Part shown: positions 10,154 through 59,208 of the stretch, piece by piece
Layout of the letters: the number at the start of each line of letters is the position of its first letter
Numbering within the stretch: the stretch's first letter is position 1
Assembly: GCA_963701085.1 (NCBI GenBank)
Contig: OY969561.1
Location: forward strand, 736,001 to 800,000
Direction of reading: 5' to 3'
Length of the DNA stretch: 64,000 nucleotides
Source of the DNA: an uncultured bacterium
Lineage (GTDB): Bacteria > Babelota > Babeliae > Babelales > Vermiphilaceae
Notes under the pieces: model-generated
Told to the model about the DNA's origin: nothing
Seen by the model: only the letters and a program-made list of their open reading frames with translations
Databases searched by the model: none
Translations under genes and position numbers: made by a program

Positions 10154-11272
10154 ATGAAGATAATCAAAAAAACAGGTTCATTCATCGCTCTGCTGATGCT
10201 TGCTTCAACATTTAATAACTATAGCATGGAGCCGCAACAACAACCAGAATGGGCTACTGTTGTTGGCGATATCATTCTTGGCACTGCAAGTTTGACAATA
10301 CTATCGCAACCAAATGAACCCTTTGAATTCACTGCTCTACCACCGGAAATGCAAGATAAAATTATTCAGTTACTCAGCTTAAACACAACTGCCGAATCAC
10401 TTAAAGAGGCTGCAAAAACTATTAATTCTCTTGCTCAAGTGAATCATGAATTAAATCAACAGATAAACGATCCTAAATTTTGCCTCAGCATCATCAAACA
10501 TCTTGCACAAAAATTCAACTGCTCTGATCAGGAAGCAGCTAAGACATTACAGACACACGAGGCAAAACGGCGTCTTGTGTTGCAAAATCAACTCTATGTA
10601 CATTGCAGTACTCCATTCGGTATAACCGATCCCCTAAAAAATATCCCATCCCTTGATTCTTTATTAGAACAAGGCGTCGATTTAAATTTTACCTATGACA
10701 CGTTAACACCTAAACTTTTTTTTACTCCACTGATGCTTACAATCGCCAGCAGTAACCTAATGATTGGAGATCTTTGTTCAATTGGAAGAAATATCATCAA
10801 CTTAAATCAAAGAAATACTCTCAATGGTGATACAGCCCTTATACAAAGCGTTAAAAAAAGATCGCGTTTTAGTGTCCAGTGCCTTCTTGAAGAAGGTGCT
10901 GATCCTGAACTTGCCAATTTTGCTGGGCAAACACCACTAGAATTAGCCGCACAACGATATCACCTGACGCAGCACAGAAGCTATCAAAAAATTTTTAATC
11001 TTATTCAAAGGGCGATAGATATTTATTTTATTCAAAATGCGATAGATAACAAACATGTTAACCAAAGAAATAACAAAGGGCAAACTGCTTTATCATTAGC
11101 CGCAGCAATACCATCATCTCGCTTGGTAAAAACCATTCTTGATGCCGGTGCCGATCCCGAACTTGCTGATGATGAAGGCCTCACCCCACTTGCTGCTGCC
11201 CAACAAACTGACAACCAAGCAATTATTGATCTTATTCAAGATGCGATAGATAGAAAACATGGCTATAAATAA
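10154..11272 (+). CDS. Exported F-box-like + ankyrin-repeat protein
   Basis: Signal ending S-ME; FTALPPEMQDKIIQLL..SLAQVN; TPL/TAL repeats. Confidence 0.9.
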   Translation: MKIIKKTGSFIALLMLASTFNNYSMEPQQQPEWATVVGDIILGTASLTILSQPNEPFEFTALPPEMQDKIIQLLSLNTTAESLKEAAKTINSLAQVNHELNQQINDPKFCLSIIKHLAQKFNCSDQEAAKTLQTHEAKRRLVLQNQLYVHCSTPFGITDPLKNIPSLDSLLEQGVDLNFTYDTLTPKLFFTPLMLTIASSNLMIGDLCSIGRNIINLNQRNTLNGDTALIQSVKKRSRFSVQCLLEEGADPELANFAGQTPLELAAQRYHLTQHRSYQKIFNLIQRAIDIYFIQNAIDNKHVNQRNNKGQTALSLAAAIPSSRLVKTILDAGADPELADDEGLTPLAAAQQTDNQAIIDLIQDAIDRKHGYK

Positions 11273-15758: not shown

Positions 15759-16637
15759 ATGCACAATAAATTAATTTTTATGAGCCTTATCATCTGTGTT
15801 TCAACAATAAATGGAATGGAATTCAATGATTTTCAAGAATATGAATTTTTACCAGTAGAAATACAATATTTAATCATTTATTTTGCTACCAATCATCTTG
15901 CAGTCAAAAAACCAAAAGAAGCTACTCAAATAATCAGAAACCTTTCCGAAACAAGTAACAGTATCAACGCTATCATTAATACACCAAAATTTAATGTTAA
16001 CCTTATAAACAATCTTGCACATACATACAAATGTTCTCATCAATCTATTGCGCAATTTCTGAACACACAACAATCAAAAAAACAATTAGCTTTGCAACAT
16101 CAACTCAAACAATTATGTCGCATTGAACAAGATATTAACCTCCTAACAAAATTGAATGAATTAGTCTCCCAAGGCATAGATCTAGAATTTACCTACAATT
16201 ATTACCCTTGTCACAAAACACCTCTCATGATAGCTATGGACTATGACAACAATATGTTTGAATACCTCATTACGCATGGTGCAAATATCAACGGTTGTAA
16301 CCTCCATGGCGCCACTGTGTTACACCTTGCCGTCAGCAAACCAGTAAACAAATATTACATCGCACGACTTGCTACAAGCCCTGCCATTGCCATAAACCAA
16401 CAAAACTGCCGTGGTGAAAACGCTTTATTGCATTGTCTCACCAGAAAAAATTTACCCACTAATCGTCTCCTTACCGCCATAGTACGGACACTTCTTAAAG
16501 CAGGCATAGACCCTGAAAACAGCAACCGTAGACAAAAAGAGCTCAATCCCCTTACCGCTGCTCAAGATTTAGGTTACCAACCGATCATTAGTATTCTTGA
16601 AAAAGCCCTTGAAGAAAAGCATTCCTTAACTCAGTGA
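15759..16637 (+). CDS. Exported F-box-like + ankyrin-repeat protein
   Basis: Signal ending G-ME; LPVEIQYLII; TPLM, TVLHLA repeats; N-module homologous to the 7955/10154 genes. Confidence 0.88.
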   Translation: MHNKLIFMSLIICVSTINGMEFNDFQEYEFLPVEIQYLIIYFATNHLAVKKPKEATQIIRNLSETSNSINAIINTPKFNVNLINNLAHTYKCSHQSIAQFLNTQQSKKQLALQHQLKQLCRIEQDINLLTKLNELVSQGIDLEFTYNYYPCHKTPLMIAMDYDNNMFEYLITHGANINGCNLHGATVLHLAVSKPVNKYYIARLATSPAIAINQQNCRGENALLHCLTRKNLPTNRLLTAIVRTLLKAGIDPENSNRRQKELNPLTAAQDLGYQPIISILEKALEEKHSLTQ

Positions 16638-40092: not shown

Positions 40093-40170
40093 ATAACGTG
40101 AGTTCGACAGCCAAACCAATAAATGCTATAAAATGCATAATATTTTTGTAGCGCTCAAAAAAGGATATTG

Positions 40171-41070
40171 ATGAAAAAAAATCTATTAATCATCCCATCC
40201 CTTTGCACCATTCTTGCTCACGCAATGGAAACAAATTCTTTCAGTATTATGCACTACGGAACAATAATTAATCTCACCAAACAATCTTTATGTACTGTTG
40301 TCAATAATGTCGATCTTGTCATTGTTGGAAGACACGAACAGCAACTGTTACAATTTTCCTCACCTGATTTTTCCTATACACCAGGAGAAATGTACTATGC
40401 AGACAACACTATTTACACAAAAAATAAAGAGTATGATAGCGCTTCTGACGATGATACGTATAAACCATTTGCCGAGGAAAATAAAAGACTGCTTCGGAAA
40501 AAAACCGAGCAAAAAATAATAAGCAACATTGTAATACAGATTGCAGAACCACGCATTCCACAAATTATCTGGTATCGAGACCCTCGCACCAATACACCAA
40601 CCCCCACCCCTCATTATGAAACTACAAGACCCAATAAAAATAGCCCCTTTTTTAGTCATCACCTCACCTTCGATGGCGCTCAAGCTATTATCGAAGCTTC
40701 AAAAGATTTATCTCTATGTTACGCAACAGCTTTAACAGACGGACTTTATCAATTATTTAAAAAAAAAGATAAAAGCATAGCTCTTGCCACACTCAGCGCT
40801 GACGTTGGTTTTCCAAGAGAAAAAGCTGCACCAATTGCTGTAAAAGAAGTTCTTACATTTGTTAGAAACAATCCAAAAGCATATGCCCGCATAGAACTGT
40901 TTGTAAAAAAACGCTCAGAATTTACCTTATACAAACAACTCTTAAATGCATACTGGGAAAGAATATGCCCTTTGTATTGCGCACATAAAGATCAAGACAG
41001 CCTCTTATCAAATGTACCACGTGATATAATAGACTATATAACATGGCTCATGGAACAGATAAAAAAATAA
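40171..41070 (+). CDS. Exported degenerate macrodomain protein with C-terminal F-box-like motif (array copy 1)
   Basis: A-ME signal; LSLCYATAL, SIALATLSADVGFPREKAAPIAV; LSNVPRDIIDYI. Confidence 0.75.
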   Translation: MKKNLLIIPSLCTILAHAMETNSFSIMHYGTIINLTKQSLCTVVNNVDLVIVGRHEQQLLQFSSPDFSYTPGEMYYADNTIYTKNKEYDSASDDDTYKPFAEENKRLLRKKTEQKIISNIVIQIAEPRIPQIIWYRDPRTNTPTPTPHYETTRPNKNSPFFSHHLTFDGAQAIIEASKDLSLCYATALTDGLYQLFKKKDKSIALATLSADVGFPREKAAPIAVKEVLTFVRNNPKAYARIELFVKKRSEFTLYKQLLNAYWERICPLYCAHKDQDSLLSNVPRDIIDYITWLMEQIKK

Positions 41071-41088
41071 TATTTTTTAAGGATCTTA

Positions 41089-42006
41089 ATGCAAAAAAAT
41101 ATTCTCATACTCGCATCTCTTGCCACCACATTTATTCACGGCATGGAAACAGTTTCTTTACATCAGGCAACAATAAATTCTTGGAGCATTTTATACTATA
41201 CAACAAAAATTCATCTCACCCAAGAATCGTTGTTTGATGTAAGTGATAAAGTTGATATTACCGTTGTTGGTAAATATCAACAAAAGATGTTAGGTGATGA
41301 CGAAACTTATGCTTACGATACCATAGGAATAACATATTTTCCTGATCCTCCTATTATTTATCAAAAAAAAAATAATAATAGCTCTTCTGTTAATGATACC
41401 TATAACCCCTATCATCCAGAAAAAAAAAATTTACCAAGTGATAGCAAAATAATAGAAAGAAACCATCTGGTAAAAGTCGTGGAACCTTGCATCATTCAAA
41501 AATATCACACAAAAAAAATCGGTGGAAAAATTATCCGTACAATTACCAAAAGAAAAACAATTTCTAAAAATGTAACCTTAAAAAACAATATCCCCATATT
41601 TTCAGAAGAGAAAAAACATGCATTAGCTCGCTGCTATGATAATGTTTTATTGTCTCCTCGATTTACGATTATCATGAGTTATGCTATAAAGAATTATAAT
41701 AAAAAAAGAAGCATCGCCCTTCCAACACTCAGCGTTGATTTTGGTTTTCCAAGACAAGAAGCAGCTTCCATTGCAGTAACAACAATTGTTAATTTTATAA
41801 GAAACAATCAAAATATGTATGACAATATATACTTTATCATAGAAAAACAATCTGATTTTAATATATATAAAAAATTACTTTTAAAGCCTTGGAAAAAAAT
41901 AATTCTTTTTTTATGTGCATCTCAAGATAAGGGAAGTACTTTATCAATACTACCACCAGATATCATATGGCACATCGTGGCTGGGGATTTATCTTTTAAT
42001 TCTTAA
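41089..42006 (+). CDS. Degenerate macrodomain + F-box-like protein (copy 2)
   Basis: G-ME signal; LARCYDNVL, SIALPTLSVDFGFPRQEAASIAV; LSILPPDIIWHI. Confidence 0.75.
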   Translation: MQKNILILASLATTFIHGMETVSLHQATINSWSILYYTTKIHLTQESLFDVSDKVDITVVGKYQQKMLGDDETYAYDTIGITYFPDPPIIYQKKNNNSSSVNDTYNPYHPEKKNLPSDSKIIERNHLVKVVEPCIIQKYHTKKIGGKIIRTITKRKTISKNVTLKNNIPIFSEEKKHALARCYDNVLLSPRFTIIMSYAIKNYNKKRSIALPTLSVDFGFPRQEAASIAVTTIVNFIRNNQNMYDNIYFIIEKQSDFNIYKKLLLKPWKKIILFLCASQDKGSTLSILPPDIIWHIVAGDLSFNS

Positions 42007-42043
42007 ATTATGTTATAATAATAAACAAACAATCTTATATTTC

Positions 42044-42103
42044 TCCTGCGCTCATCCTGCCTGCCCGACGAAGCCTTGGCAAAGTAGGGAACTTGTTGAA
42101 GGA
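42044..42103. repeat. A-type element interrupted by a 30-bp B-type element (42060-42089)
   Basis: Removing the insert restores CCTGCGCTCATCCTGAACTTGTTGAAGGA, compare 57282. Confidence 0.85.
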
Positions 42104-42129
42104 TTAAGCGCAATAAAACAGGTCTTACT

Positions 42130-43119
42130 ATGAACAAAATAATTCTCTTCGCATCTCTTGCCACCACATTTATTCACGGCATGGAAACAGTTTCTTTACT
42201 CGGAATGACAAAAACTTCTTTGAATATGGTCTATAATGGAACAAAAATTAATCTCTCAAAAAAACCTTGGGAAGATGCGGTAGATACAAAAGTTCTCATG
42301 GTTATTGGCAATCAACAACAAAATATGTTGCAAGAAAGACATAATGGTCTTAATACCATAGGACACGCTTATTTTTCATATGGTACCGTATGTTATATTC
42401 GCAAAAGAAAAATGGCAGATGAAAGCGCTTCTGATGATGATACATATATAGAAGAAGCTCTTTCATTTAAATCATATCGTCAAATCGATAAACAAACATG
42501 GAGAGAGCACTATAAAGAGAAAAAAATCTACATGAAAATTGAAGAACCGTGCATTAGTAATTCTACCAGAGAAAAAATAATCAGTTTTTGCCAACCTGAT
42601 TCAGATTCAATGCAAACAATCACCATACCCGCTCAACTCATGAATACTTTTGTATACAATGTTCACAGAGCAGTACCTGACAGAGACGATGCGTATTATG
42701 ATTTGGTTTTTCAAGGTGATGAAGCAATTCAAGAAGCTTCAAAGGATTTAATTTTATGTTATAACAACGCTTTAACTGAAGGATTAAAATACTTCCAATC
42801 TGAAGCAAAAAAAAATAGAAGCCTAACTTTTCCAACGCTTGGTGCTGATACCGGCTTTCCACGAGATAAAGCCGCACCAATTGCCATAGCAACAGTTTTT
42901 GAATTTATCCAAGAACATCCAGATGAATATGAAAGTATTACTTTTTTTGTCAAAAAACGATCTGATTTTGCGTTGTATAAAAAATTGTTAATGGAATACT
43001 ACAAGCCAATACAAACAATATGTCTTTTATATTTTGCACATAAAAATAATGAAACCATTATATCTCTTCTGCCATTCAATGTGATAAACCACATAACTTG
43101 GTTAATGCATAATTCATAA
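42130..43119 (+). CDS. Degenerate macrodomain + F-box-like protein (copy 3)
   Basis: G-ME signal; SLTFPTLGADTGFPRDKAAPIAI; ISLLPFNVINHI. Confidence 0.78.
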   Translation: MNKIILFASLATTFIHGMETVSLLGMTKTSLNMVYNGTKINLSKKPWEDAVDTKVLMVIGNQQQNMLQERHNGLNTIGHAYFSYGTVCYIRKRKMADESASDDDTYIEEALSFKSYRQIDKQTWREHYKEKKIYMKIEEPCISNSTREKIISFCQPDSDSMQTITIPAQLMNTFVYNVHRAVPDRDDAYYDLVFQGDEAIQEASKDLILCYNNALTEGLKYFQSEAKKNRSLTFPTLGADTGFPRDKAAPIAIATVFEFIQEHPDEYESITFFVKKRSDFALYKKLLMEYYKPIQTICLLYFAHKNNETIISLLPFNVINHITWLMHNS

Positions 43120-43242
43120 TATTCAACTCAAAAAAGATAAATTCCCAACTTGGACTGTTGGGGTATTTATCTTTTAATTCTTAAATAACAAAAATTATGT
43201 GCTATACTAAAATTAATAAATTTACTCAGAGGGGCACATATC

Positions 43243-44205
43243 ATGAACAAAATAATTCTCTTCGCATCTCTTGCCACCACATTTATTCACGGCATGGAAA
43301 CAGTTTCTTTACTCGGAATGACAAAAACTTCTTTGAATATGGTCTATAATGGAACAAAAATTAATCTCTCAAAAGAACCTTGGGAAGATGCGGTAGATAC
43401 AAAAGTTCTCATTGTTATCGGCAATCAACAACAAAATATGTTGCAAGAAAGACATAATGGTCTTAATACCATAGGACACGCTTATTGGTCATATGGTACC
43501 GTATGTTATATTCGCAAAAGAAAAATGGCAGATGAAAGTGCCTCTGATGATGATACATATAAACCATATCGTAAAATTGATAAACAAACATGGAGAGAGC
43601 ACTATAAAGAGAAAAAAGTCTACATAAAAATTGAAGAGCCATGCATTAGTAATTCTACCAGAGAAAAAAGCATCAGTTTTTGTTCACCTGATTCAGATTC
43701 AATGGAAACAATCACCATACCCGCTCAACTCATGAATACTTTTGTATACAATGTTCACAGAGCAGTACCTGACAGAGACGATGCGTATTATGATTTAGTT
43801 TTTCAAGGCGATGAAGCAATTCTAGAAGCTGCAAATGATTTAGTTTTATGTTATGACAACGCTTTAACTGAAGGATTAAAATACTTCCAATTTGAAACAA
43901 AAAAAAATAAAAACATAGCTTTTCCAACGCTCGGTGCTGATACCGGCTTTCCACGAGATAAAGCCGCTCCAATTGCCATAGCAACAGTTTTTGAATTTCT
44001 CCAAGCATTTCCAGATAAATATGAAAGTATTACTTTTTTCGTCAAAAAACGATCTGATTTTGCGTTGTATAAAAAATTGTTAATGGAATACTACAAGCCA
44101 ATACAAACAATATGTCTTTTATATTTTGCACATAAAAATAGTGAAGGCATTATATCTCTTCTGCCATTCGATGTGATAAACCACATAACTTGGTTAATGT
44201 TATAA
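43243..44205 (+). CDS. Degenerate macrodomain + F-box-like protein (copy 4, near-identical to copy 3)
   Basis: Long identical nucleotide stretches with 42130-43119; lacks the 21-bp IEEALSF segment. Confidence 0.78.
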   Translation: MNKIILFASLATTFIHGMETVSLLGMTKTSLNMVYNGTKINLSKEPWEDAVDTKVLIVIGNQQQNMLQERHNGLNTIGHAYWSYGTVCYIRKRKMADESASDDDTYKPYRKIDKQTWREHYKEKKVYIKIEEPCISNSTREKSISFCSPDSDSMETITIPAQLMNTFVYNVHRAVPDRDDAYYDLVFQGDEAILEAANDLVLCYDNALTEGLKYFQFETKKNKNIAFPTLGADTGFPRDKAAPIAIATVFEFLQAFPDKYESITFFVKKRSDFALYKKLLMEYYKPIQTICLLYFAHKNSEGIISLLPFDVINHITWLML

Positions 44206-44335
44206 TGCATAATATTCAACTCAAAAAAGATAAATTCCCAACTTGGACTGTTGAGGTATTTATCTTTTAATTCTTAAATAACAAAAATTATGTGCTATAC
44301 TAAAATTAATAAATTTACTCAGAGGGGCACATATC

Positions 44336-45325
44336 ATGAACAAAATAATTCTCTTCGCATCTCTTGCCACCACATTTACTCACAGCATGGAAACAGTTTC
44401 TTTACTCGGAATGACAAAAACTTCTTTAAATATGATCTATAATGGAACAAAAATTAATCTCTTAAAAGAACCTTTATCAAGCGCAGCAAACAAAGCCAAG
44501 ATCACCTTTGTTGGTGACAAACAGCAAGAATTGTTATCTGGACAATTTGACACTTCCTCTTACACTGTAGGAACAATATGGAATGCTTGTGATAATCTTC
44601 TAGACTCCAGCACACGACACTTTGGTGAGTCTATTTCCTTATATGAAAAAAATAAGGATGATGATAGCGCTTCTGATGATGATACTTACAAATCATATCC
44701 TTATAATCCTGACAATAAAAAAGAAGCACTATGGAAAAGTACATATAAAAAAACAGCAAGCTTTATAAAAAATGTTGTAGAACCATGCATCAATCAATCA
44801 GCAGAAGGCTTTATATATTATTCATGTCGACGCGATCCAAATTACCATTGGAGTAACAACAAAATCTTGCTAACATTTACAGGTGATGAAGCAATTGAAG
44901 AAGCTTCAAAAGATTTAGACTTGTGTTATAGAGAAATTTTAAGAATAGGAGCTGGATATTATATATCAAGATCAGAATCTAAAATTTGGTATACCAGACC
45001 ACAAACAAAGCAGAACACAACTATAGCAATTCCACCTCTGAGCGTTGATGTTGGTTTCCCACGAGATAAAGCTGCACCCATTGCTATAGCAGCTATTTTT
45101 AATTTTCTTTAAGATTACACTGAAGGATATGATACTATAAATCTTGTCGTCCAAAAACGATCTGACTTTGCGTTGTATAAAAAATTGTTAATGAAACACT
45201 ACAAGCCAATACAAGCAATATGTCTTTTATATTGTGCAAACAAACATAAAAACAATGAACATATCATATCTCTTCTACCATTCGATGTGATAAGCTACAT
45301 AACTTGGTTAATGTATAATGCATAA
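44336..45325 (+). pseudogene. Degenerate macrodomain + F-box-like protein (copy 5) with an internal TAA
   Basis: TAA at 45110-45112 aligns with CAA (Gln) in copies 3/4; homologous frame continues (VQKRSDFALYKK..LLPFDVISYITWLM) to 45325. Confidence 0.8.
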
Positions 45326-45379
45326 TATTCAATTCAAATAAACTTAATCCCCAACGATCCAAGTTGGGGATGTATCTTA

Positions 45380-45632
45380 GAACCTATTCCTAAACTAATT
45401 TTTATCCCCGCGCTCGTTTAACCTCATCTTCATTCTTTCGATGGGGACCCCGATTGGAACGAAGTGGAAATTGGGGGATAAAGGATATCCTCGAGCGCTC
45501 GAAGAAAACCCTTCAAGCCGTCCTTCGCCGAGGCTTCGGAGGCCAGGCGGGTGTTTACTGCTGAGCAACGTCGAAGCATCAGGGCGAGCGCGGGAAGGAA
45601 ATTTAATATTTTTCGACTTTAGAGATAGGCTC
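45380..45632. mobile_element. MITE with IS5-like TIRs and TTA target duplication
   Basis: TTA|GAACCTATTCCTAAA ... TTTAGAGATAGGCTC|TTA (12/15 TIR match); absent from paralogous spacers near 43180 and 44272. Confidence 0.85.
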
Positions 45633-45694
45633 TTAAATAACAAAAATTATGTGCTATACTAGAACTAACAAATTTACTCAGAGGGGCACATACC
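45633..45694 (+). promoter_or_regulatory. Extended -10 promoter and RBS of trhO, also copied upstream of array copies 4 and 5
   Basis: TGTGCTATACT and AGAGGGG; near-identical blocks at 43181-43242 and 44274-44335. Confidence 0.7.
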
Positions 45695-46612
45695 ATGAAC
45701 AAAATACTCCTTTTTTATAAATACGTTGCCATTGAATACCCAAAACAGATTATGAAATGGCAACAACAAATATGCCAAGAACGAGCACTCCTGGGCAGAA
45801 TTCTGATTAGCCACGAAGGTATCAATGGCACCTTGGGCGGATCGGCACAAAACCTTGATGAATACATGCGCCTCATGTTAGCCCATGAACTGTTCGGTGA
45901 AATAGATTTTAAAGAAAGCACTGGCGGCCCTGAATGCTTCCCTCGCCTTTCCGTTAAAGTACGCAATGAGGCGGTATCGCTGGGCATTCCTTATGACCAA
46001 CTCACTCCACGCACGGGCGGCCAACACCTTACTCCAGAAGAAACACACGCAACTTCTTACCGATAAACCTGAAGATCTTATAATTTTAGACGCACGTAAC
46101 AATTATGAGTGGGAAATTGGGCGTTTTGAAAATGCACTACTGCCTGATATTCAAAACTTTAGAGATTTGCCACACTATCTTGATGAAAATCTTGATCAAT
46201 TTAAAGACAAACAAGTACTCATGTATTGCACGGGTGGCATCCGTTGTGAACGCGCAACAGCATATCTTAATGAAAAAAATGTTGCCAAAAAAGTATATCA
46301 AATAAAGGGCGGCATTGTTCGTTATGCAGAACAGTATCCTGATGGCTTTTTCCGTGGCAAAAATTATGTTTTTGATGCACGCATTGCAGTAAAAATAAAC
46401 AATGACATTCTTGGTTCTTGCACCCTTTGCACACAACCATGTGATGATTACCACAACTGCCTCAATGCTTCATGCAATAAACATTTTATTGCTGCGCTGA
46501 CTGCATCAATACCTACAATAAAACCTGCAGTCAAAACTGTAAAATGTTGATTCAAGAAAATAAAACTCACCTACGACCCGAATTTAATAAAACCTGCTCA
46601 TTACCTCAGTAA
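45695..46612 (+). pseudogene. trhO: tRNA U34 hydroxylase TrhO (YceA, rhodanese-related), two frameshifts
   Basis: LLFYKY, GRILISHEGINGT, ILDARNNYEWEIGRF, MYCTGGIRCE, GKNYVFD; frame breaks near 46049 and 46492 (may be sequencing errors). Confidence 0.8.
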
Positions 46613-48180: not shown

Positions 48181-49290
48181 TTACTTAACCCTAAAATCTT
48201 CTTCCAAGTAATGCCTAAACGTAAAATTACACAGTGTGACAAACATATATTCTTCTCTTTTTATTTTTCCTTTTTTTACAAACTCATCCATTTTTATCGG
48301 CTCTTTTTTTAAAAGATCTCTATCCTCATCCGTAACATTTATTTTGTCAACTGCGTGTCCGTATAAAAATTCTGCCAACTCACTTTGGTTAATCGTTTTT
48401 GCATTGGCCAATATACTGCTTTTAAACGCTTTTTCCAACTCTTGCATATAATCAACACCATCTTCAAGACGAGCAAAAACTTCCTCTATTGCATTGTGAT
48501 CAGTAAAAAATTCAAAAGGGATGCTATCGTATGCGTACCCACTAACTCTGAACGTTGCAGCCCATTTCCCAACAGTTTTTGCTAAACCAATATCATACGC
48601 AACAGTTTCAGTAACATACTTTTTGATAACCGGTGCATCACGCCTCAATTTTTCTGCCGTAATATCTAATAAATAAGCATGATGCTTATGATGATCATCA
48701 GTACTTTTTGTGAGTTTTAGTTCTTCTTTTTCAATAGATGCATCATTGTCATGATCAAAGTATTTTGCAAGATAATAATATAAATGTTTATGGGCATGTT
48801 CAGACTTAGTCGGGCTAACAACATTATGATTATTCTGAGACGTTGTAGTAATAACATAATCATTGTTTATTGCTTGGCACACAACTCTTCTCTCACAATC
48901 AAGCGTAATAAAACTGCCATCAGTAATTTTTTTAGTCGCTTCACGTACACCAACAATTACCGGAATACGGAACTTTTGCCCCAAGGATAACGCATAGTTA
49001 TCATTAATACCTTTTTCCGTAATAATTCCCGCAGATAAATGCAATCCACAGCCCCATGATTCATGTATATAAGGCGCAACAACAATATCTCCCTCACGCA
49101 GCTTCCTTAGATGCTTATACTCCGTGACAATAGATACTCTTCCGGTGACATTATCACCATAACTAAACTTGCCAACTGCCACTATTTTTTTATATTCAGG
49201 CTCCATTGCAGACAAGAATAGTATAGACAAGCATAAAAAACAGATTACAATACCAATAAGTCGAATAGATGATATCTTTTTTATAAACAT
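48181..49290 (-). CDS. Exported protein with a PEP-utiliser swivelling-domain-like region
   Basis: A-ME signal; VTGRV..GDIVVA..GIITEKG..IPVIVG..IT.G..ITLD pattern. Confidence 0.75.
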   Translation of the reverse strand: MFIKKISSIRLIGIVICFLCLSILFLSAMEPEYKKIVAVGKFSYGDNVTGRVSIVTEYKHLRKLREGDIVVAPYIHESWGCGLHLSAGIITEKGINDNYALSLGQKFRIPVIVGVREATKKITDGSFITLDCERRVVCQAINNDYVITTTSQNNHNVVSPTKSEHAHKHLYYYLAKYFDHDNDASIEKEELKLTKSTDDHHKHHAYLLDITAEKLRRDAPVIKKYVTETVAYDIGLAKTVGKWAATFRVSGYAYDSIPFEFFTDHNAIEEVFARLEDGVDYMQELEKAFKSSILANAKTINQSELAEFLYGHAVDKINVTDEDRDLLKKEPIKMDEFVKKGKIKREEYMFVTLCNFTFRHYLEEDFRVK

Positions 49291-52733: not shown

Positions 52734-54029
52734 ATGTCAACAACAAAAAACAACCAACTCTCATTATGGTCAGCCATCATAATCAACCTTAACATTATTA
52801 TTGGCTCAGGAGTTTTTATTAACACAACAGAACTTGCAAAACGCGCAGGTCTGCTTGGCGGCCTTTGTTACGTTCTTGTTGGCCTGCTGCTGTTTCCACT
52901 CATTTTATCATTTGTACGATTATTACAATTCTATCCAAGCGGTGGATTTTACTCTTTTTGCAGCACATCAATTCATCCATTAGTAGGATTTTTTAATACC
53001 TGGTGTTATTTTTTTGCAAAACTATCATCGGCAACATTAGTCATTCATATTTTTACATTATTACTACAAAAAACATTCCCCGCGCTGAATATCATCAGTC
53101 CTATGATATTTGATATGGGCATGTTAGCACTATTACTCGCGCTTAATATGCTCAATGTTAGAACAGGCAGCAGAATTCAAGGCTGGTTGATGATCTTAAA
53201 ACTGTTTCCACTTTTTTTTGTTATTGTCTCAGGCCTCTTCTTTTTACAAGATGGCAACTTAACTCCCGTGCATCAATTATGGTCAGGCATTCCAGCATCA
53301 ATTCCTTTAGTGCTGCACGCACTACTTGGTTTTGAAATTGCATGCGCAATTAGCCGTAATATAGAAAATCCAGAAGTTAACGGCCCACGATCAATATTGA
53401 TCTCGTACGGTATTGTGATCGTATTATATGTACTGTATCAAGGATTCTTTTATGGAATTTTAGGCACAGATTTGAGCAATGCAACAGATTATCGCGGCGC
53501 ATTCCCACTACTAATTAACAAGTTCGGCATCAGTGATTATGCACGTGATATTCTTGGCCATCTTATTCATCTTGCAATTGCCGTTTCCGCACTCAGCGCA
53601 GGATTTGGTATTATTTATGCAAATATGTGGAATCTGTATACCGTTGCAGAACTTAATCATACACCTGCACCAAATCTCATCACACAACGCAACCGTTTTA
53701 ATGTTCCTTTTGTTTGCGTACTTGCCCAAGGTGCAATCATGCTCATCTACATGTTCATTATTAACGGTGAACAAACTACCTTCCAACAACTCAGTGCATT
53801 TGGCGCAACAGTTACCTATATTTTAAGCATTGCCGGTTTATACGCAACATTACGCCAAAAAGGTCATTCATTATTACTGCCCATCATGGGATTTATTAAT
53901 TGCGGCATTTTAATGACTGCTTCCTTGTTTGCTCTGTGGAAAACAAGCAATCCAACCCCATTGTATATATTCTTGAGCATTGTAGGATGTGGCATTGTTG
54001 TTTACGGAATGTCAGAAAAGAAAAAGTAA
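52734..54029 (+). CDS. APC family amino-acid permease
   Basis: IIGSGVF, PSGGFY, GFE, about 12 TMs. Confidence 0.9.
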   Translation: MSTTKNNQLSLWSAIIINLNIIIGSGVFINTTELAKRAGLLGGLCYVLVGLLLFPLILSFVRLLQFYPSGGFYSFCSTSIHPLVGFFNTWCYFFAKLSSATLVIHIFTLLLQKTFPALNIISPMIFDMGMLALLLALNMLNVRTGSRIQGWLMILKLFPLFFVIVSGLFFLQDGNLTPVHQLWSGIPASIPLVLHALLGFEIACAISRNIENPEVNGPRSILISYGIVIVLYVLYQGFFYGILGTDLSNATDYRGAFPLLINKFGISDYARDILGHLIHLAIAVSALSAGFGIIYANMWNLYTVAELNHTPAPNLITQRNRFNVPFVCVLAQGAIMLIYMFIINGEQTTFQQLSAFGATVTYILSIAGLYATLRQKGHSLLLPIMGFINCGILMTASLFALWKTSNPTPLYIFLSIVGCGIVVYGMSEKKK

Positions 54030-54046
54030 AATTAACACATATCACT

Positions 54047-54844
54047 ATGAACAGCAAAACTATTATCCTAATCATAGTACTCTATCTTAATAGCACACTC
54101 ATTGGCATGGAAATTGAACCAAAACACAACCTAATTCAGTTGTTGCAACAATTTGCCCACAATGATGTTAAACAGGAAATTATTAATCACGTAAAACCAA
54201 AACAATGGTGGTACTTAGATAAAGTATTTAAACATAACGGCCGTGTTTATCCAACCTACTCTAACTCGTCTGAGAAACTCTGCGCAATAGCAAGGGATGG
54301 CACAGCACGTATATTTGATAGACAAACAAAAAAAGAAATTGCTTCTTTTGCTCATGGCGTCTGGATTTATTCAGCCTGCCTTGACCCCTCTGAAAAACTC
54401 CTCACAACAGCATCATGGGATCGTAAAGCACGTATATTTGATAGAGAAACACAAAAAGAAATTGCTTCTTTTTTACATAGCGACCGAGTTAATTCAGCCT
54501 GCCTTGACCCATCTGGAAAACTTCTTGCAACAGCATCAAATGATGGCAAAGTACATATATTTGCGCAGTATGATGACTATACATTAGAACAACTGCTGTT
54601 CAAGAAAGCACTGCTCACCTGGCTGCTTGTTGAAAAACCAAACAAAAAAATAGATACGCTCGACAATCTTATAAAAGATGTAGCTTTAAAATGTACTATT
54701 CCCTATGAAGAATTAATCAAAATTTGGTCTACATTTCCTGAGAAAATGCAAAATGCCATTTGGAGAACCATGCACTATAAAATTCAAAAATATGGTAAAG
54801 ATTATAATTATGTTTGCATCATACATGGTTGTATCATACTATGA
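54047..54844 (+). CDS. Exported WD40-repeat protein
   Basis: G-ME signal; 41-aa repeats with TASWDRKARIFD; 123-bp nucleotide period (54305 vs 54428). Confidence 0.88.
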   Translation: MNSKTIILIIVLYLNSTLIGMEIEPKHNLIQLLQQFAHNDVKQEIINHVKPKQWWYLDKVFKHNGRVYPTYSNSSEKLCAIARDGTARIFDRQTKKEIASFAHGVWIYSACLDPSEKLLTTASWDRKARIFDRETQKEIASFLHSDRVNSACLDPSGKLLATASNDGKVHIFAQYDDYTLEQLLFKKALLTWLLVEKPNKKIDTLDNLIKDVALKCTIPYEELIKIWSTFPEKMQNAIWRTMHYKIQKYGKDYNYVCIIHGCIIL

Positions 54845-54926: not shown

Positions 54927-55967
54927 TTACTTGGCACTTTCTGTTGCGCCAGCATCTTTAAGCAATTGAACAATAATTTCATATTTTTTTTGATCATTAT
55001 CTTTATTCAGCAACCCTTCTTGCGCATAACTTAATGCAGTTTTATCAAATCCATCAAGCAACCATACTATCGCCTTAGCATCAAGAAGTTTTCTTACTAC
55101 CTCTACATATCCTCTCATTGCAGCCATTATCAGTGGAGTCCTTCCTAAAGCATCTGTAGCATTAACCCGAGCTCCTCGCTTTATCAATAAATCAACCGTA
55201 TCTTGCCTACCATACTCTGCCGCTGCATATAAAACAGTATAACTTTGAGTATAACTTGGTACCTTCTTTGTCCAACTATCAATATAATCTGTTTGATACG
55301 TTGATTTGGTTTCTTTATCAACTCCACGATCAAGCAATAATTCAACCACTTTTACTTTATTAGTCTGTGCAGCAATTATCACAAGAGGCGTTTTCCCTGA
55401 ATAACCATATCCAGCACCATTAAGCACACCAGGATCTAGCCCCATATCTAAACTAGCTTTTATTATATCCACACCTTCATCTGCAAAAATAAACCCATCA
55501 ATTCTCATTCCATCATCTTTATGTCCATATTGCACTATATTAGACAAAAATATCCGTAATTGTTCTTTTGCTTGATCATTATTGTTAATATATTCTTTTC
55601 CAAATTCAATTGCTCCTGGAGTTCCTAAAACTGCTGCTCCTAACTCTTTATAAAAACCTGCTCGATCACGGCAACCTATACCAGCATTCTCTCTCCAAAA
55701 ACCAAGACACCTACCACCAACAAGATCCAATAACTGCTCTGTCGCTTTTTTACTATTGAAAACTCTAGTAAATCTTACATCATTTTTTGCATAAGCCTTT
55801 ATTTCTGAAATCGCCCCTTCAAACATTCCATATTTATATTTAGCTGCAATAAACACACATTGCAGATGTTCAGCAAGTTCAAGTTCTGAATTTAAATCTT
55901 CCATACCAAAAACAGTAGCTCCACTCACCATCATTGTAATGAGTAAAGCATGCACTATAACCATCAT
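54927..55967 (-). CDS. Exported ankyrin-repeat protein
   Basis: G-ME signal; TVLYAAA, GRTPLIMAA; paralogue of the next gene. Confidence 0.9.
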   Translation of the reverse strand: MMVIVHALLITMMVSGATVFGMEDLNSELELAEHLQCVFIAAKYKYGMFEGAISEIKAYAKNDVRFTRVFNSKKATEQLLDLVGGRCLGFWRENAGIGCRDRAGFYKELGAAVLGTPGAIEFGKEYINNNDQAKEQLRIFLSNIVQYGHKDDGMRIDGFIFADEGVDIIKASLDMGLDPGVLNGAGYGYSGKTPLVIIAAQTNKVKVVELLLDRGVDKETKSTYQTDYIDSWTKKVPSYTQSYTVLYAAAEYGRQDTVDLLIKRGARVNATDALGRTPLIMAAMRGYVEVVRKLLDAKAIVWLLDGFDKTALSYAQEGLLNKDNDQKKYEIIVQLLKDAGATESAK

Positions 55968-55995
55968 AACTCTCCTTTTTAACGTCAGCAGACAT

Positions 55996-56029
55996 AAAAA
56001 AAGAAGCCTTGATTTTTCAGGGCTTCTTT
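55996..56029 (-). terminator. Rho-independent terminator
   Basis: AAAGAAGCCTTGA..TCAGGGCTTCTTT with an A run on the left. Confidence 0.75.
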
Positions 56030-56047
56030 ACACGTTTCCATAATTTT

Positions 56048-57202
56048 TTACTTGTCACTTTCTATTGCACCAGCATCTACCAGCAATTTAACAATAGCGT
56101 TATACTTTTGTTTATCTTCTTCCTTTTTACAATTCCATAACTTGTCCATTGCGTGGTTTAATACAGCTTTACCATCTGTATCGGTTAACGACACATCAGC
56201 CTTAGCAGCAAGAAGTTTTCTTACTATCTCTGTATATCCGCTCATTACAGCCCTCATCAACGGAGTTCTTCCAAAAGCATCAGCAGCATTAATCTGAGCT
56301 CCTCGCTTTATCAATAAATCAACCGTGTTTTGACTACCATGCTCTGCCGCTGCATATAAAGCAGTATAGCTTTGAGTATAACTTGGTACCTTTTTATAAC
56401 TATCATTATACTCTGTTGTATACGTGAATTTAATGTCTTTATCAACTCCACGATCAAGCAATAATTCAACCACTTTTACTTTATTAGCCCCTACAGCAGC
56501 TATCACAAGAGGCGTTCCCTCTGAACAGCCAAATGGATCATCATCACCACTCAGCATACAAGGGTCTAGTCCCATCTCTAAACCAGCTCTAACCACATCC
56601 ACATCTTCATCTGGCCACGCTAAATGGTTGGTACAACTATTTCCTTGATGCCCATACTGTACTACAGTAAACAGAAAATCTTTCAATCTTTTTTTTGCAG
56701 AATCTTGTTTAATGAATTCTCTTCCAAATGCAATTGCTCCCGGAGTTCCTAAAAGCACTGCTGCCAATTCCAAATAAATATACTTACCTTCATAACGTAC
56801 AGAAAGATCAAATCCATTTTTAAAACACGCGTAATTATCTAAATGGCGATTAACCATATATAACAAAGGTTCTGTATAACACGCCCTATCTACAATTTTT
56901 TTCCATCCCCTATCCTTTTGCGCCAAAGCTCTTATTTTTGGGGCAATTCCTTCAAACATACTCTGTTCTTCTTTTATAATACGTTCAAGTTCTTCGTATC
57001 TTGGCGCATAAAGTTCATGAAATGATGGATGCTCCCTTTCATAATCTCTCATTGCCTCTTCAATGGTTCTACCCTTACTTTCATAGCTTTTAGCCCACTC
57101 ATTAAAAGGTTTATTAATAAGTGATTCATTATTCTCCATACCAAAAACAGTAGCTCCACTCACCATCATTGTAATGAGTAAAGCATGCACTATAACCATC
57201 AT
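56048..57202 (-). CDS. Exported ankyrin-repeat protein
   Basis: Signal peptide identical to the 54927 gene; TALYAAA, GRTPLMRA. Confidence 0.9.
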   Translation of the reverse strand: MMVIVHALLITMMVSGATVFGMENNESLINKPFNEWAKSYESKGRTIEEAMRDYEREHPSFHELYAPRYEELERIIKEEQSMFEGIAPKIRALAQKDRGWKKIVDRACYTEPLLYMVNRHLDNYACFKNGFDLSVRYEGKYIYLELAAVLLGTPGAIAFGREFIKQDSAKKRLKDFLFTVVQYGHQGNSCTNHLAWPDEDVDVVRAGLEMGLDPCMLSGDDDPFGCSEGTPLVIAAVGANKVKVVELLLDRGVDKDIKFTYTTEYNDSYKKVPSYTQSYTALYAAAEHGSQNTVDLLIKRGAQINAADAFGRTPLMRAVMSGYTEIVRKLLAAKADVSLTDTDGKAVLNHAMDKLWNCKKEEDKQKYNAIVKLLVDAGAIESDK

Positions 57203-57256
57203 AACTCTCCTTTTTTTTGTTATTAATTTATCGCAATTTCAAATGCAAAAATGTTA

Positions 57257-57362
57257 GAGCCTATCCCTAAACTAATTTTTTCCTGCGCTCGCCCTGAACT
57301 TGTTGAAGGGTTTTCTTCGAGCGCTCGGAGATATCCTTCGACAAGCTCAGGACGAGCGCGGG
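57257..57362. mobile_element. Truncated MITE copy supplying the stop codon of the adjacent ankyrin gene
   Basis: TTA|GAGCCTATCCCTAAACTAATTTT then the A-type palindrome shared with 26187-26260. Confidence 0.8.
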
Positions 57363-58114
57363 TTTGACCACTCAAGCAATTGCAAACGATTTGGTACTAT
57401 ACTAGGTTGCATTCTCGTATATGTATTAAGATCAATCACATTGTGCATGAACTTTTTAGGATAAACTTCAGTAGTAACTGTTTGTCTGCAGCATTCAGTC
57501 TTATCATTTTTAGTTTTTTCAAGAAATGTAATCATTTCTGGAAAATTCAAATTTCTACTACCATATTTCAAATTTTTACTATCACCATTCAACTTCTTAT
57601 TACCACTCTTGGAACGTCGAGGTATTGTGCAATTATAGAAAGGCACAGAACGTAATAAAGAACTATTTGCTTCATCTAATGCAGTTTTACCATCGTTATT
57701 TTGTATACTTTTATCTGCACCAGCCTTAACCAAACTTTTTACAAGAGAAGTACGTCCAGTCCTCGCTGCCATCATTAACGCCGTATCACCAAACTCATTT
57801 GTACAATTTAATTGCGCATCATTCTCAATTAAAATCTTCATTAGTTTGGGGCGACCATAAAATGCGGATGTCATAAGCAGAGTCATTTCTTTGATTTTTT
57901 TCAAATATGGACTAGCAGGTATAGTGCCTTTCGCATTTATATTGCCGCCATTATTAATATATGATTCAATCAATTCTATATCGTTTTTTTCTACCGCCTT
58001 CAATAAGGTATTTATATCTACCTTTTGCCTACTCATATTTTCCAAATCTTCCATACCAAAAATAGCACCACCACTCACCATCATCGTAATGAGTAAAACA
58101 CGCAATATAACCAT
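57347..58114 (-). CDS. Exported ankyrin-repeat protein
   Basis: Start 58114 (MVILRVLLITMMVSGGAIFGMED) by homology with neighbours; GDTALMMAA, GKTALD. Confidence 0.85.
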   Translation of the reverse strand: MVILRVLLITMMVSGGAIFGMEDLENMSRQKVDINTLLKAVEKNDIELIESYINNGGNINAKGTIPASPYLKKIKEMTLLMTSAFYGRPKLMKILIENDAQLNCTNEFGDTALMMAARTGRTSLVKSLVKAGADKSIQNNDGKTALDEANSSLLRSVPFYNCTIPRRSKSGNKKLNGDSKNLKYGSRNLNFPEMITFLEKTKNDKTECCRQTVTTEVYPKKFMHNVIDLNTYTRMQPSIVPNRLQLLEWSNPRSS

Positions 58115-58143
58115 CGTAAACCCTCTCGTTGTTAGTATATAAT

Positions 58144-59208
58144 TTATCGCAATTTTAATGTAATAAGCGTCAGCAGGCATAAAACAAAAGAAATAATACC
58201 AAAACGCGTGGTAATACGCGATTCTGGCCACCCAAGCAGTTCGAAATGATGATGAATTGGAGCCATCTTAAACACTCGCCTGCCTAAATAGCGCACAGAA
58301 AGCACTTGCAGGATGACTGAGACTGTTTCCAAGACAAAAAGACCACCGGCAATGGGCAATAAAAGCTCCTGTTTTGCCATAATTGCCATTAAAGCAAGCC
58401 CTGCCCCCAAAGCCAATGAGCCGACATCACCCATAAAAATCTGCGCTGGATAGGTATTATACCATAAAAACCCCAGCGATGTCCCAATCAAAATAGCCCC
58501 AATTATGGCAATTTCAGCCGTTCCGGCAAAAGGAATGTGTAAATATTGAGCTGCGCCATAATGGCCGGCTAAATAGCAAATAAGAGAAAATGTGGCAAAA
58601 TTAGGTATTAATGAGCCAATAGCCAACCCATCAAGCCCATCAGTCAAATTTACGGCATTACTGCAACCTACAATGATAAAAACCGCCCAGGGTATGAAAA
58701 AGAGGCCCAAATTTGGCGTACAATGCTTAAAAAAGGGAAAAACGATCTCCATAGAGATAGAAGACCAAAAAACAAGCCCCAAAGCCACTAGGGTTGCTAA
58801 AATCAGCTGTAATTTAAACTTAGCCCCTGAAGAAATCCCCTTATTCTTATATATTTTATGCCAATCGTCCCAACAACCCAGCGCTCCAAAGCCTACAATG
58901 CAGAATAAGAAGATCCAGACGTTCGGTTGCGATAAATCACACCATAATAAGGCATTAATAAGCACTACTGCCAAAATAAAAACCCCCCCCATGGTTGGCA
59001 TACTATCCTTCTTTTTATGGGTATCTGGGGTGAATTCACGAGCTTTAGAGCGGAAAAAACGGCGGGAAATGGTCATAAAAAGCCCCCCAAACAGCAAAAA
59101 GCTGCTCAAAGAAGTGAGCAAAGAAGCGACTGCGCGCACACTTACATAGTGCAACACATTAAAAAAAGGCCAATAATGTTTCAAATAAGAGGATAAATGG
59201 TATATCAT
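58144..59208 (-). CDS. mraY: Phospho-N-acetylmuramoyl-pentapeptide transferase
   Basis: PTMGG, DD, SNAVNLTDGLDGL, PAQIFMGDVGS, MAPIHHHFE. Confidence 0.98.
   Translation of the reverse strand: MIYHLSSYLKHYWPFFNVLHYVSVRAVASLLTSLSSFLLFGGLFMTISRRFFRSKAREFTPDTHKKKDSMPTMGGVFILAVVLINALLWCDLSQPNVWIFLFCIVGFGALGCWDDWHKIYKNKGISSGAKFKLQLILATLVALGLVFWSSISMEIVFPFFKHCTPNLGLFFIPWAVFIIVGCSNAVNLTDGLDGLAIGSLIPNFATFSLICYLAGHYGAAQYLHIPFAGTAEIAIIGAILIGTSLGFLWYNTYPAQIFMGDVGSLALGAGLALMAIMAKQELLLPIAGGLFVLETVSVILQVLSVRYLGRRVFKMAPIHHHFELLGWPESRITTRFGIISFVLCLLTLITLKLR

Follow-up and report, generated by a model that had tools for sequence, protein, structure and literature searches.

The window analysed here, a stretch of 64,000 nucleotides (bases 736001-800000 of a 1.20-Mb single-contig genome with a completeness of 92.6% by marker count), contains five open reading frames (ORFs) that lie head to tail on the + strand at 40168-45325 and encode putatively exported proteins built on a degenerate macrodomain. 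On balance, we lean towards reading them as an exported pseudo-macrodomain effector family restricted to one genus of the Babeliales (Dependentiae), bacteria that parasitise protists intracellularly. In the mechanism that we propose, a secreted canonical macrodomain of the Babeliales would have been the source of the family, and its members would no longer bind or hydrolyse ADP-ribose, serving instead as non-catalytic binding modules (pseudoenzymes). They may cross the envelope through Sec and a secretin, or be released in vesicles, to act on components of the host, each old paralogue possibly having its own target. The C-terminal tail could be a separable protein-protein contact element, related by shared ancestry or convergence to helix 1 of the many secreted F-boxes of this organism. 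Host targeting is no more than plausible.

Five tandem paralogues with a macro fold

The original prediction described five tandem paralogues, and all five were found on the + strand. In the alignment, copies 2-5 share 39-43% identity with copy 1, and copies 3 and 4 are 89% identical to each other (95% at the nucleotide level, with a synonymous divergence, dS, of 0.07 and a nonsynonymous to synonymous ratio, dN/dS, of 0.65). The signature motifs L..CY..L and [ST]IA.P.L..D.GFPR..AA.IA are present in the alignment, as had been claimed. The nearest named relatives are proteins of 'Candidatus Babeliales bacterium'. A total of 42 homologues was found at E<=1e-3 among 1021 candidates, far beyond chance, and a library of 1.84 billion representative proteins yielded 168 representatives at E<=1e-30; given these 168 clusters, the family is diverse in metagenomes. 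The ORF of copy 1 runs from 40168, the ATG at 40171 being the start taken in the original prediction.

The ending [LI]S.[LV]P.[DN][IV]I.[HY]I, previously attributed to every copy, is indeed encoded in all five frames, but that of copy 5 lies behind an in-frame TAA which had been overlooked; the tail-coding part follows this stop, the frame runs on to 45325, and the other copies have a sense codon at the position. The TAA is covered, with no listed difference, by contigs of two public runs from two studies, one over 44980-45417 with 0 differences (run X1) and one over 44937-45125 with a single difference at 45030 (run X4). Because the contigs of the two runs agree, albeit at a depth of only 2-5, an assembly error is unlikely. 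The four runs compared consist of low-depth contigs that cover the array piecewise, and no contig spans it.

The macrodomain fold, which had been proposed from the signature motifs, is corroborated by structure prediction. The AlphaFold2 model of copy 4, built on an alignment of 41 members, has a mean predicted local distance difference test score (pLDDT) of 82.6 and a predicted template modelling score of 0.79. Macrodomains rank first when the model is searched with Foldseek (probability 1.00), and VIA, which is independent of Foldseek, aligns model residues 27-287 to the MacroD-type domain of Oceanobacillus (5fud_A) with Z 15.7 and a root-mean-square deviation of 2.7 A over 157 residues; the 34 chains found by VIA at Z>=8 are almost all macro folds or related aminopeptidase N-domains. 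The best match in the ESM Atlas (0.75) is a Macro cluster, which we take as a lead only. At the sequence level, the profile of the 41 members matches human MACROD2 over the C-terminal half (E 1e-13), and the NCBIfam protein-ADP-ribose hydrolase model matches copies 1-4 singly (E 1e-10 to 1e-7), with the alignment confined to the final ~85 residues of the domain (copy 2 matches NF003163 at E 1e-10, likewise in the C-terminal part only). Single sequences reach Pfam Macro (PF01661) weakly, with two of the five copies at E 0.05-0.08 and 13-14 bits, below the cut-off of 22 (copy 2: E 0.077, 13.4 bits). Since model, Foldseek, VIA and family profile agree, we regard the predicted three-layer alpha/beta/alpha macro fold of the array proteins as confirmed.

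Loss of the ADP-ribose motifs

The reference set consisted of 15 canonical macrodomains from other Babeliales genomes, such domains being present in 15 of the 61 genomes searched. Comparison of the family profile with this set by hhalign covers the full domain (195 columns, probability 98.7%, E 1.7e-16), which establishes the homology, and the alignment demonstrates the replacement of the ADP-ribose motifs that had been suspected: the Asp of GDI, both Asn of NAAN and the GGG loop are all gone. GDI is aligned to Q/E/K-S/P-L/W, and the adenine-contacting Asp is therefore lost. IVNAAN is aligned to VVG..QQ, and although the NAAN register is uncertain by one residue, no register retains an Asn. 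In place of the GGGV.GAI of loop 1 stands a variable stretch in which a single Gly is conserved, and VIHAVGP is aligned to f.Y..hR. In loop 2, ISTGIYGYP is aligned to LSADV-GFPR, with Asp or Glu instead of the first Gly and a deletion of one residue.

Compared with the canonical domains, the family also contains an insertion of ~60 residues with an acidic disordered loop. Its acidic core, DDSASDDDTYKPY, lies between the first two aligned elements and is the best-conserved stretch of the N-terminal half of the family. In 41 sequences S101 and D104 are invariant, and S99, D102, D103 and Y106 are conserved in at least 90%. Residues 96-102 of the copy 4 model have a pLDDT below 50, which predicts disorder. 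The SASDDD motif that had been reported for four copies occurs in copies 1, 3, 4 and 5 and is degraded in copy 2. We infer from the alignment, with good support, that canonical ADP-ribose binding has probably been lost.

A genus-restricted family of retained duplicates

A search of related genomes, proposed in the original prediction, established a narrow distribution. Full-length members occur in the genome of the window and in 8 of the 10 other genomes of its genus, whereas 45 further genera of the same taxonomic family, represented by 69 genomes, have none; in 60 genomes sampled throughout the order, the matches were all to canonical macrodomains, over their C-terminal halves. The number of matches per genome varies from 0 to 10; they usually stand in tandem, and internal stops interrupt many of them. 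Ten members are present in the genome of the window, namely the five described here, three at C1:237773-240296 and two at C1:124709-126426, and a canonical macrodomain was not found in it. Among the canonical macrodomain ORFs of the Babeliales, 14 of which were examined, all 12 with a complete N-terminus have a hydrophobic one (two are cut at the ends of their loci), and the C-terminal tail is absent from those examined. The degenerate family most likely descends from a secreted canonical macrodomain enzyme of other Babeliales. A search for relatives in giant viruses and phages gave 53 pattern matches in viral contigs, none of which was confirmed.

The growth of the array can be read from its tree and spacers. 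In a tree of 162 members, copies 1, 2 and 5 and the pair 3/4 each have their own nearest relative outside the genome (for copy 1, P0016 at a tree distance of 0.05); the array therefore consists of old, individually retained paralogues and one recent duplication, that of copies 3 and 4. In the spacers before copies 4 and 5, the terminator hairpin that belongs to the copy upstream is followed by a stretch of ~75 nucleotides with promoter and ribosome-binding site and by the first ~20 coding bases. A promoter-like ATAACA-17-TAAAAT lies at 43185-43213 and 44278-44306. This spacer stretch recurs almost unchanged in the 5' region of a trhO-like gene located downstream, and the repeated promoter segment is the scar left at the breakpoints of tandem duplication. 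Because this trhO-like 5' segment is repeated, copies 3-5 begin with MNKI[IL]LF like the trhO-like gene itself. Pairwise dN/dS values among the five copies are 0.39-0.66. Together, the limitation to one genus, the 0-10 tandem copies, the internal stops and these dN/dS values amount to a host-interaction style of evolution, which speaks for the effector reading.

An F-box-like motif in the C-terminal tail

The last 35-40 residues form a predicted helix-turn-helix tail, with a pLDDT of 83.3 when folded alone. Its consensus is ..ICLLY.AHKD....LS.LP.[DE][IV]I.YI..L, and many members stop exactly there; across 32 tails the Pro is invariant and the Ile is conserved in at least 90%. The closing helix, LP-x-[DE]-[IV]-I-x-x-I-x-x-L (the LP helix), occurs in about 40% of members, including all five frames of the window: the tail is carried by 65 of the 162 tree members and absent from 97, by a pattern that misses a few. 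Members have the tail regardless of whether they carry the acidic motif (odds ratio 0.58, p 0.14); its occurrence is clustered on a tree built without the tail (19 changes, against a mean of 50.8 with shuffled labels), and it behaves as an inherited but losable module. In one metagenomic member, P0027, a 16-residue LS.LP.E...YI..LI unit is found twice in tandem, a doubling which suggests that the unit may be a self-contained module.

The original prediction went further and saw in this ending an F-box-like element. It can be hypothesised that the dead macro fold serves as substrate receptor and that the C-terminal minimal F-box recruits host SKP1, whereupon the bound host proteins would be ubiquitinated by an SKP1-cullin-F-box (SCF) ligase. 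The comparison of the tail with 19 F-boxes of the Babeliales by hhalign lends some substance to this proposal, as the score of 20.1 (P 2.7e-4) exceeds that of all 200 column-shuffled tails (7.0 +/- 1.6, maximum 13.7) and that of the reversed tail (4.3); yet the probability is 41.5%, and the match extends over 19 columns only, which correspond to the LP motif and helix 1. When the tail profile is searched against PDB sequences, the second of four matches at E<=10 is the F-box of FBXW7, at its start (E 0.61), but the word L..LP.EI also brings in two leucine-rich-repeat proteins. In circumstantial support, the genome itself encodes genuine F-box proteins with signal peptides, as well as ankyrin and WD40 proteins with LP helices; one genuine F-box is encoded at C1:290753-292174. 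A mixed set of 11 N-terminal LP-helix modules matches F-boxes with a probability of 86.8% over 36 columns, and the LP-helix pattern is enriched genome-wide (25 occurrences in 1921 ORFs against 8.9 +/- 2.5 in 40 shuffles). There is also a precedent in the poxvirus ankyrin proteins, whose truncated C-terminal F-boxes (PRANC) reportedly bind SKP1; Sonnberg 2008, on this subject, figures among the references of PMC6561590.

Against recruitment of SKP1 stands the remainder of the domain. None of the 32 tails matches the Pfam F-box clan (PF00646, PF12937) or PRANC (PF09372) at E<=10, and the full-length copies have no match to F-box or PRANC models at E<=1. The proteins end 11-16 residues past the LP, so there is no room for F-box helices 2 and 3, two of the three that pack against SKP1; the copy 4 model has a single helix, 309-319, after the LP. 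The tail-only model is a generic helical hairpin, without a Foldseek match at E<=0.001 (one row, E 9.7), and VIA, queried with this 40-residue hairpin, reaches a maximum Z of 4.7 on generic helical hairpins, with no F-box among the 50 rows listed; for so short a model these structural comparisons speak neither for nor against an F-box. Since ~60% of the family lacks the tail, the latter cannot be its core mechanism. Separately, a SKP1-like gene (PF01466) was found in none of 261 Dependentiae genomes, a search in which the controls gave no match either. As judged from the sequences, the likeness of the tail to an F-box is real as a 19-residue motif but does not make an F-box domain of it; the claim is upheld for the LP motif and helix 1, and fails for helices 2 and 3. 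We consider SCF recruitment an unlikely, minority hypothesis, for which the plain label 'F-box' overreaches when only a helix-1-like motif is present.

A more elaborate version combines the tail with the acidic loop. The pattern S-x-x-[DE] is that of casein kinase 2 sites, and the Ser residues of the loop fit it. The array proteins might then be dead macro scaffolds derived from a secreted ADP-ribosylhydrolase and coupled to host machinery by two linear elements of eukaryotic style: a one-helix minimal F-box that docks SKP1 or a SKP1-like adaptor, and the acidic Ser-rich loop, at the site of the former catalytic loop, as a casein kinase 2-type phospho-switch or decoy, a combination that we hold to be rather improbable.

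Two other identities of the tail were rejected. It is not a widespread module of the genome, where a hidden Markov model of the tail finds only the six tailed members and one 105-codon ORF; nor is it a sortase LPXTG signal, a tail anchor or a type IX secretion-type sorting domain, as it has no Gly, is not followed by a membrane span and is too short. The 105-codon ORF, at C1:1049539-1049856 (- strand), has a tail-like end (E 1e-4 with the tail model) and no macrodomain, and may be the remnant of a family member.

Further LP helices were observed in other putatively exported proteins of the genome. A [LF]P..MQ..[IL] helix closes WD40-repeat proteins that carry signal peptides (53900-54844 in the window; C1:1109402-1110295 on the - strand, 264244-265941 and 643388-643828), and their order, WD40 repeats and then the LP helix, is the reverse of the eukaryotic order of F-box and then WD40. 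Ankyrin-repeat proteins are encoded at 54927-55967, 56048-57202 and 57347-58231, all on the - strand, and also at 10154-11272 and 15759-16637. Tandem paralogues among them have almost the same signal peptide (...MMVSGATVFGME), and further ankyrin proteins have an LP-x-E-[IM]-Q helix directly after the signal peptide and Met-Glu.

Conserved residues of the altered pocket

A remodelled macrodomain need not be inert, and the pocket may still be enzymatic or bind a small molecule, whether another nucleotide derivative, a cationic ligand or ADP-ribose in a non-canonical manner. The macro fold supports several chemistries, as in PARG, TARG1 and DarG. In the 41 sequences several positions that line the pocket, namely G60, Q64, E132, P133, G235, P237, R238 and S271, are invariant or nearly so. 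The acidic motif tends to occur together with KKRS, a basic patch of the last strand (58 of 154 full-length representatives have both, 68 neither and 28 only one), a count that is uncorrected for relatedness and partly mirrors overall divergence. On the other hand, every class of residue used by known macrodomain hydrolases has been replaced, an acidic residue has been gained in loop 2 precisely where backbone amides bind phosphate, dN/dS values of 0.4-0.65 are high for an enzyme, and broken copies are frequent. We find a retained small-molecule function very doubtful.

Predicted export and possible delivery to the host

Sec-type N-termini, previously noted for the array, were recognised in all five copies by hydropathy and the -3/-1 rule: a basic residue is followed by 12-14 hydrophobic residues and by H-[GA]-M-E, for example MNK-IILFASLATTFI-HG and then ME. 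The copy 4 model has a low-confidence N-terminal helix at residues 2-18. A hydrophobic N-terminus is present in 135 of 154 family representatives, 111 of which also have [AGSTC]-M-[EDNQK]; several of the 19 others begin at the Met of the M-E pair, like truncated or mis-started gene calls. Judged by these sequences, export to the periplasm is well supported, and from there delivery into the host is what we infer. The genome has two secretins and no match to the type III and type IV secretion markers FHIPEP and VirB4, which agrees with the type II system with two gspD copies reported for all TM6 genomes studied, according to the accessible part of PMC4776705. For a cultured relative, the available portion of PMC6561590 gives 44% of proteins with signal peptides and 98 ankyrin proteins, and describes possible outer-membrane vesicles and a gathering of host mitochondria around the pathogen.

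A role confined to the bacterial periplasm or surface, in envelope biology or adhesion, where the proteins would never meet cytosolic factors of the host, would accord with the Sec signal being all that is demonstrable and with the failure of the VirB4 and FHIPEP searches to find a dedicated injection system, but it is highly improbable given a genus-restricted, copy-variable, tandem and decay-prone pattern unlike that of a housekeeping envelope protein, an [AG]-M-E signal-peptide ending common to the ankyrin, WD40 and F-box-like proteins of the genome, and a parent fold that acts on cytosolic or nuclear modification.

Several considerations nevertheless weigh against an exported pseudo-macrodomain effector. 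A Sec signal alone leads to the periplasm, and passage to the host is assumed; the signal peptides themselves were judged by hydropathy, by eye and by the -3/-1 rule. The loss of ADP-ribose binding is deduced from an alignment in which the NAAN motif may be shifted by one residue, and the newly conserved residues, namely G60, Q64, E132-P133, the Asp or Glu of loop 2, GFPR and KKRS, could form a new ligand-binding or catalytic site. At the completeness of this genome, the type III and type IV systems and the canonical macrodomain are to be regarded as 'not found' only.

Many predicted exported proteins of this genome have signal peptides with the [AG]-M-E end. Genome-wide, 55 of the 448 ORFs whose N-terminus is hydrophobic show it, compared with 2 of 448 for a control segment and 14 of 760 among the remaining ORFs; examples in the window lie at 43243-43302, 48181-49290 (- strand), 54927-58231 (- strand) and 15759-16637. 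If cleavage takes place after the Ala or Gly, the mature proteins would all begin with Met-Glu. The motif could be a lineage-specific sorting or cleavage signal, or an internal alternative start; that it mimics an ordinary eukaryotic N-terminus is speculation. The protein at 48181-49290, whose signal peptide ends in ...SAME, carries the mobile domain of phosphoenolpyruvate-utilising enzymes (E 6e-13), which is odd for an exported protein.

Features of the array and its surroundings

Table 1. Coordinates of the array genes and of their features in the window
Feature	Position	Strand	Description
Copy 1	40168..41070	+	300 aa; signal peptide, degenerate macrodomain, SASDDD loop, LP-helix tail; from ORF and alignment
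Copy 2	41089..42006	+	305 aa; most divergent copy; acidic loop degraded to SSSVND; tail end ...LPPDIIWHIVAGDLSFNS
Copy 3	42130..43119	+	329 aa; recent duplicate of copy 4
Terminator-like hairpin after copy 3	43143..43163	+	
Promoter, ribosome-binding site and first codons before copy 4	43180..43262	+	repeats at ~44273-44356 (copy 5) and ~45630-45712 (trhO-like gene); from alignment
Copy 4	43243..44205	+	320 aa; copy chosen for structure model
Sec-type signal peptide of copy 4	43243..43293	+	MNKIILFASLATTFIHG, followed by ME...; cleavage site predicted by the -3/-1 rule
Acidic Ser-rich loop of copy 4	43531..43566	+	ESASDDDTYKPY; placed by hhalign where canonical loop 1 and first helix lie
C-terminal tail of copy 4	44089..44202	+	residues 283-320; helices 285-298, 303-306 and 309-319; ends in LP-x-D/E helix
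Terminator-like hairpin after copy 4	44237-44255		
Copy 5	44336..45325	+	full-length frame broken by one in-frame TAA at 45110-45112; product 258 aa
Terminator-like hairpin after copy 5	45347-45371		

Between copy 5 and the trhO-like gene, at 45363-45612, lies an element of ~250 nucleotides with 50% GC in a genome of 36% GC. About 100 full or partial copies of it, including a 36-nucleotide palindromic core, are scattered across the genome, and an Rfam search of 45300-45720 found nothing at E<=1; the element resembles an intergenic repeat of the dispersed kind or one of the miniature inverted-repeat transposable type. The trhO-like gene at 45695-46550 (UPF0176_N, Rhodanese and Rhodanese_C domains) is split over two frames, with a shift near 46045-46056 that reflects either a frameshifted gene or a sequencing error. 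A class A bacterial RNase P RNA is located at 2319-2753 (211.9 bits).

Significance

The Dependentiae are widespread and almost uncultured parasites of protists whose effectors are essentially unknown, and the family provides a concrete example of how host-directed proteins may be built: a secreted enzyme is duplicated, catalysis is lost and short eukaryote-like motifs are gained. If the tail does bind SKP1, it would be a minimal F-box on a new receptor fold for SCF ligases; with one helix it would be the smallest F-box known to function, and the family would open a new class of substrate receptors for SCF. Proof of such binding would make the family far more interesting. If the tail does not bind SKP1, the array would still be a clear natural example of a pseudo-macrodomain in which to study the partners that a macro fold takes on when ADP-ribose is lost, a question that also applies to macroH2A variants, the coronavirus SUD domains and Toxoplasma MAF1.

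Comparison with known systems

The architecture had been put forward as undescribed, and the searchable literature contains no description of it: no paper on the family was found there, Babeliales with 'macro domain' or Dependentiae with 'macrodomain' were not found together, and no fusion of a macrodomain with an F-box or SKP1-binding element was found described in the accessible parts of the sources. None of the closest precedents, that is, macro folds that do not bind ADP-ribose, MAF1, the Legionella macrodomain effectors and the bacterial F-box effectors, combines the features of the array family.

The first precedent for the fold is the MacroD type, represented by MACROD2 (4iqy/6y4y), the Oceanobacillus iheyensis domain (5fud/5l9k) and SauMacro of S. 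aureus (5kiv/8rsl), to which the copy 4 model is aligned with Z 13.9-15.7 over 152-157 residues. The likeness in sequence resides in the C-terminal half, with L..CY..L, SIAFP, AA.IA and the last strand and helix. Unlike these domains, the array family lacks the Asp of GDI, the Asn of NAAN and the GGG, has a shorter loop 2 and possesses the acidic insertion, the signal peptide and the C-terminal tail.

In structure, the copy 4 model also resembles Toxoplasma gondii MAF1 (6bxr; Z 10.2 over 166 residues), which has reportedly been called macro-like in print. MAF1 belongs to a secreted effector family that is tandem and copy-number-variable and whose paralogues have functionally diverged, as stated in the accessible part of PMC7999873; it differs in coming from a eukaryotic parasite, in being anchored in the vacuole membrane and in binding host mitochondrial import proteins. 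Macro-fold proteins are likewise delivered by an intracellular bacterium of amoebae, Legionella, with MavL and Lpg0081 (Z 5.9 to the copy 4 model). In contrast to the array proteins, these are active hydrolases, single-copy, without a Sec signal and delivered by a type IV system. MavL appears in the abstract of PMC8699189 and figures in the reference list of PMC13720258.

For the tail, the relevant precedents are the F-box effectors of host-associated microbes (Legionella AnkB, LegU1 and LicA, Agrobacterium VirF, Ralstonia GALA and the poxvirus PRANC proteins), in which a short LP-x-E helix is likewise attached to a protein-binding domain. They have two or more of the three F-box helices and score above the Pfam thresholds, whereas the array tails do not. 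The F-box of PRANC is C-terminal and truncated. None of the known F-box effectors is joined to a macro fold in the accessible part of PMC13720258. The RALPH effectors of powdery mildews, as portrayed in the available part of their literature, offer an analogy only: an expanded secreted family on an enzyme fold without catalysis, differing in fold, kingdom and host.

The secreted canonical macrodomains of the Babeliales come from the same order, have hydrophobic N-termini and are tied to the array family by the profile match reported above. They differ in that GDI, NAAN and GGG are kept, in that there are one or two matches per genome, and in that they have neither the acidic loop nor the LP tail, and they are the likely ancestors of the proteins described here.

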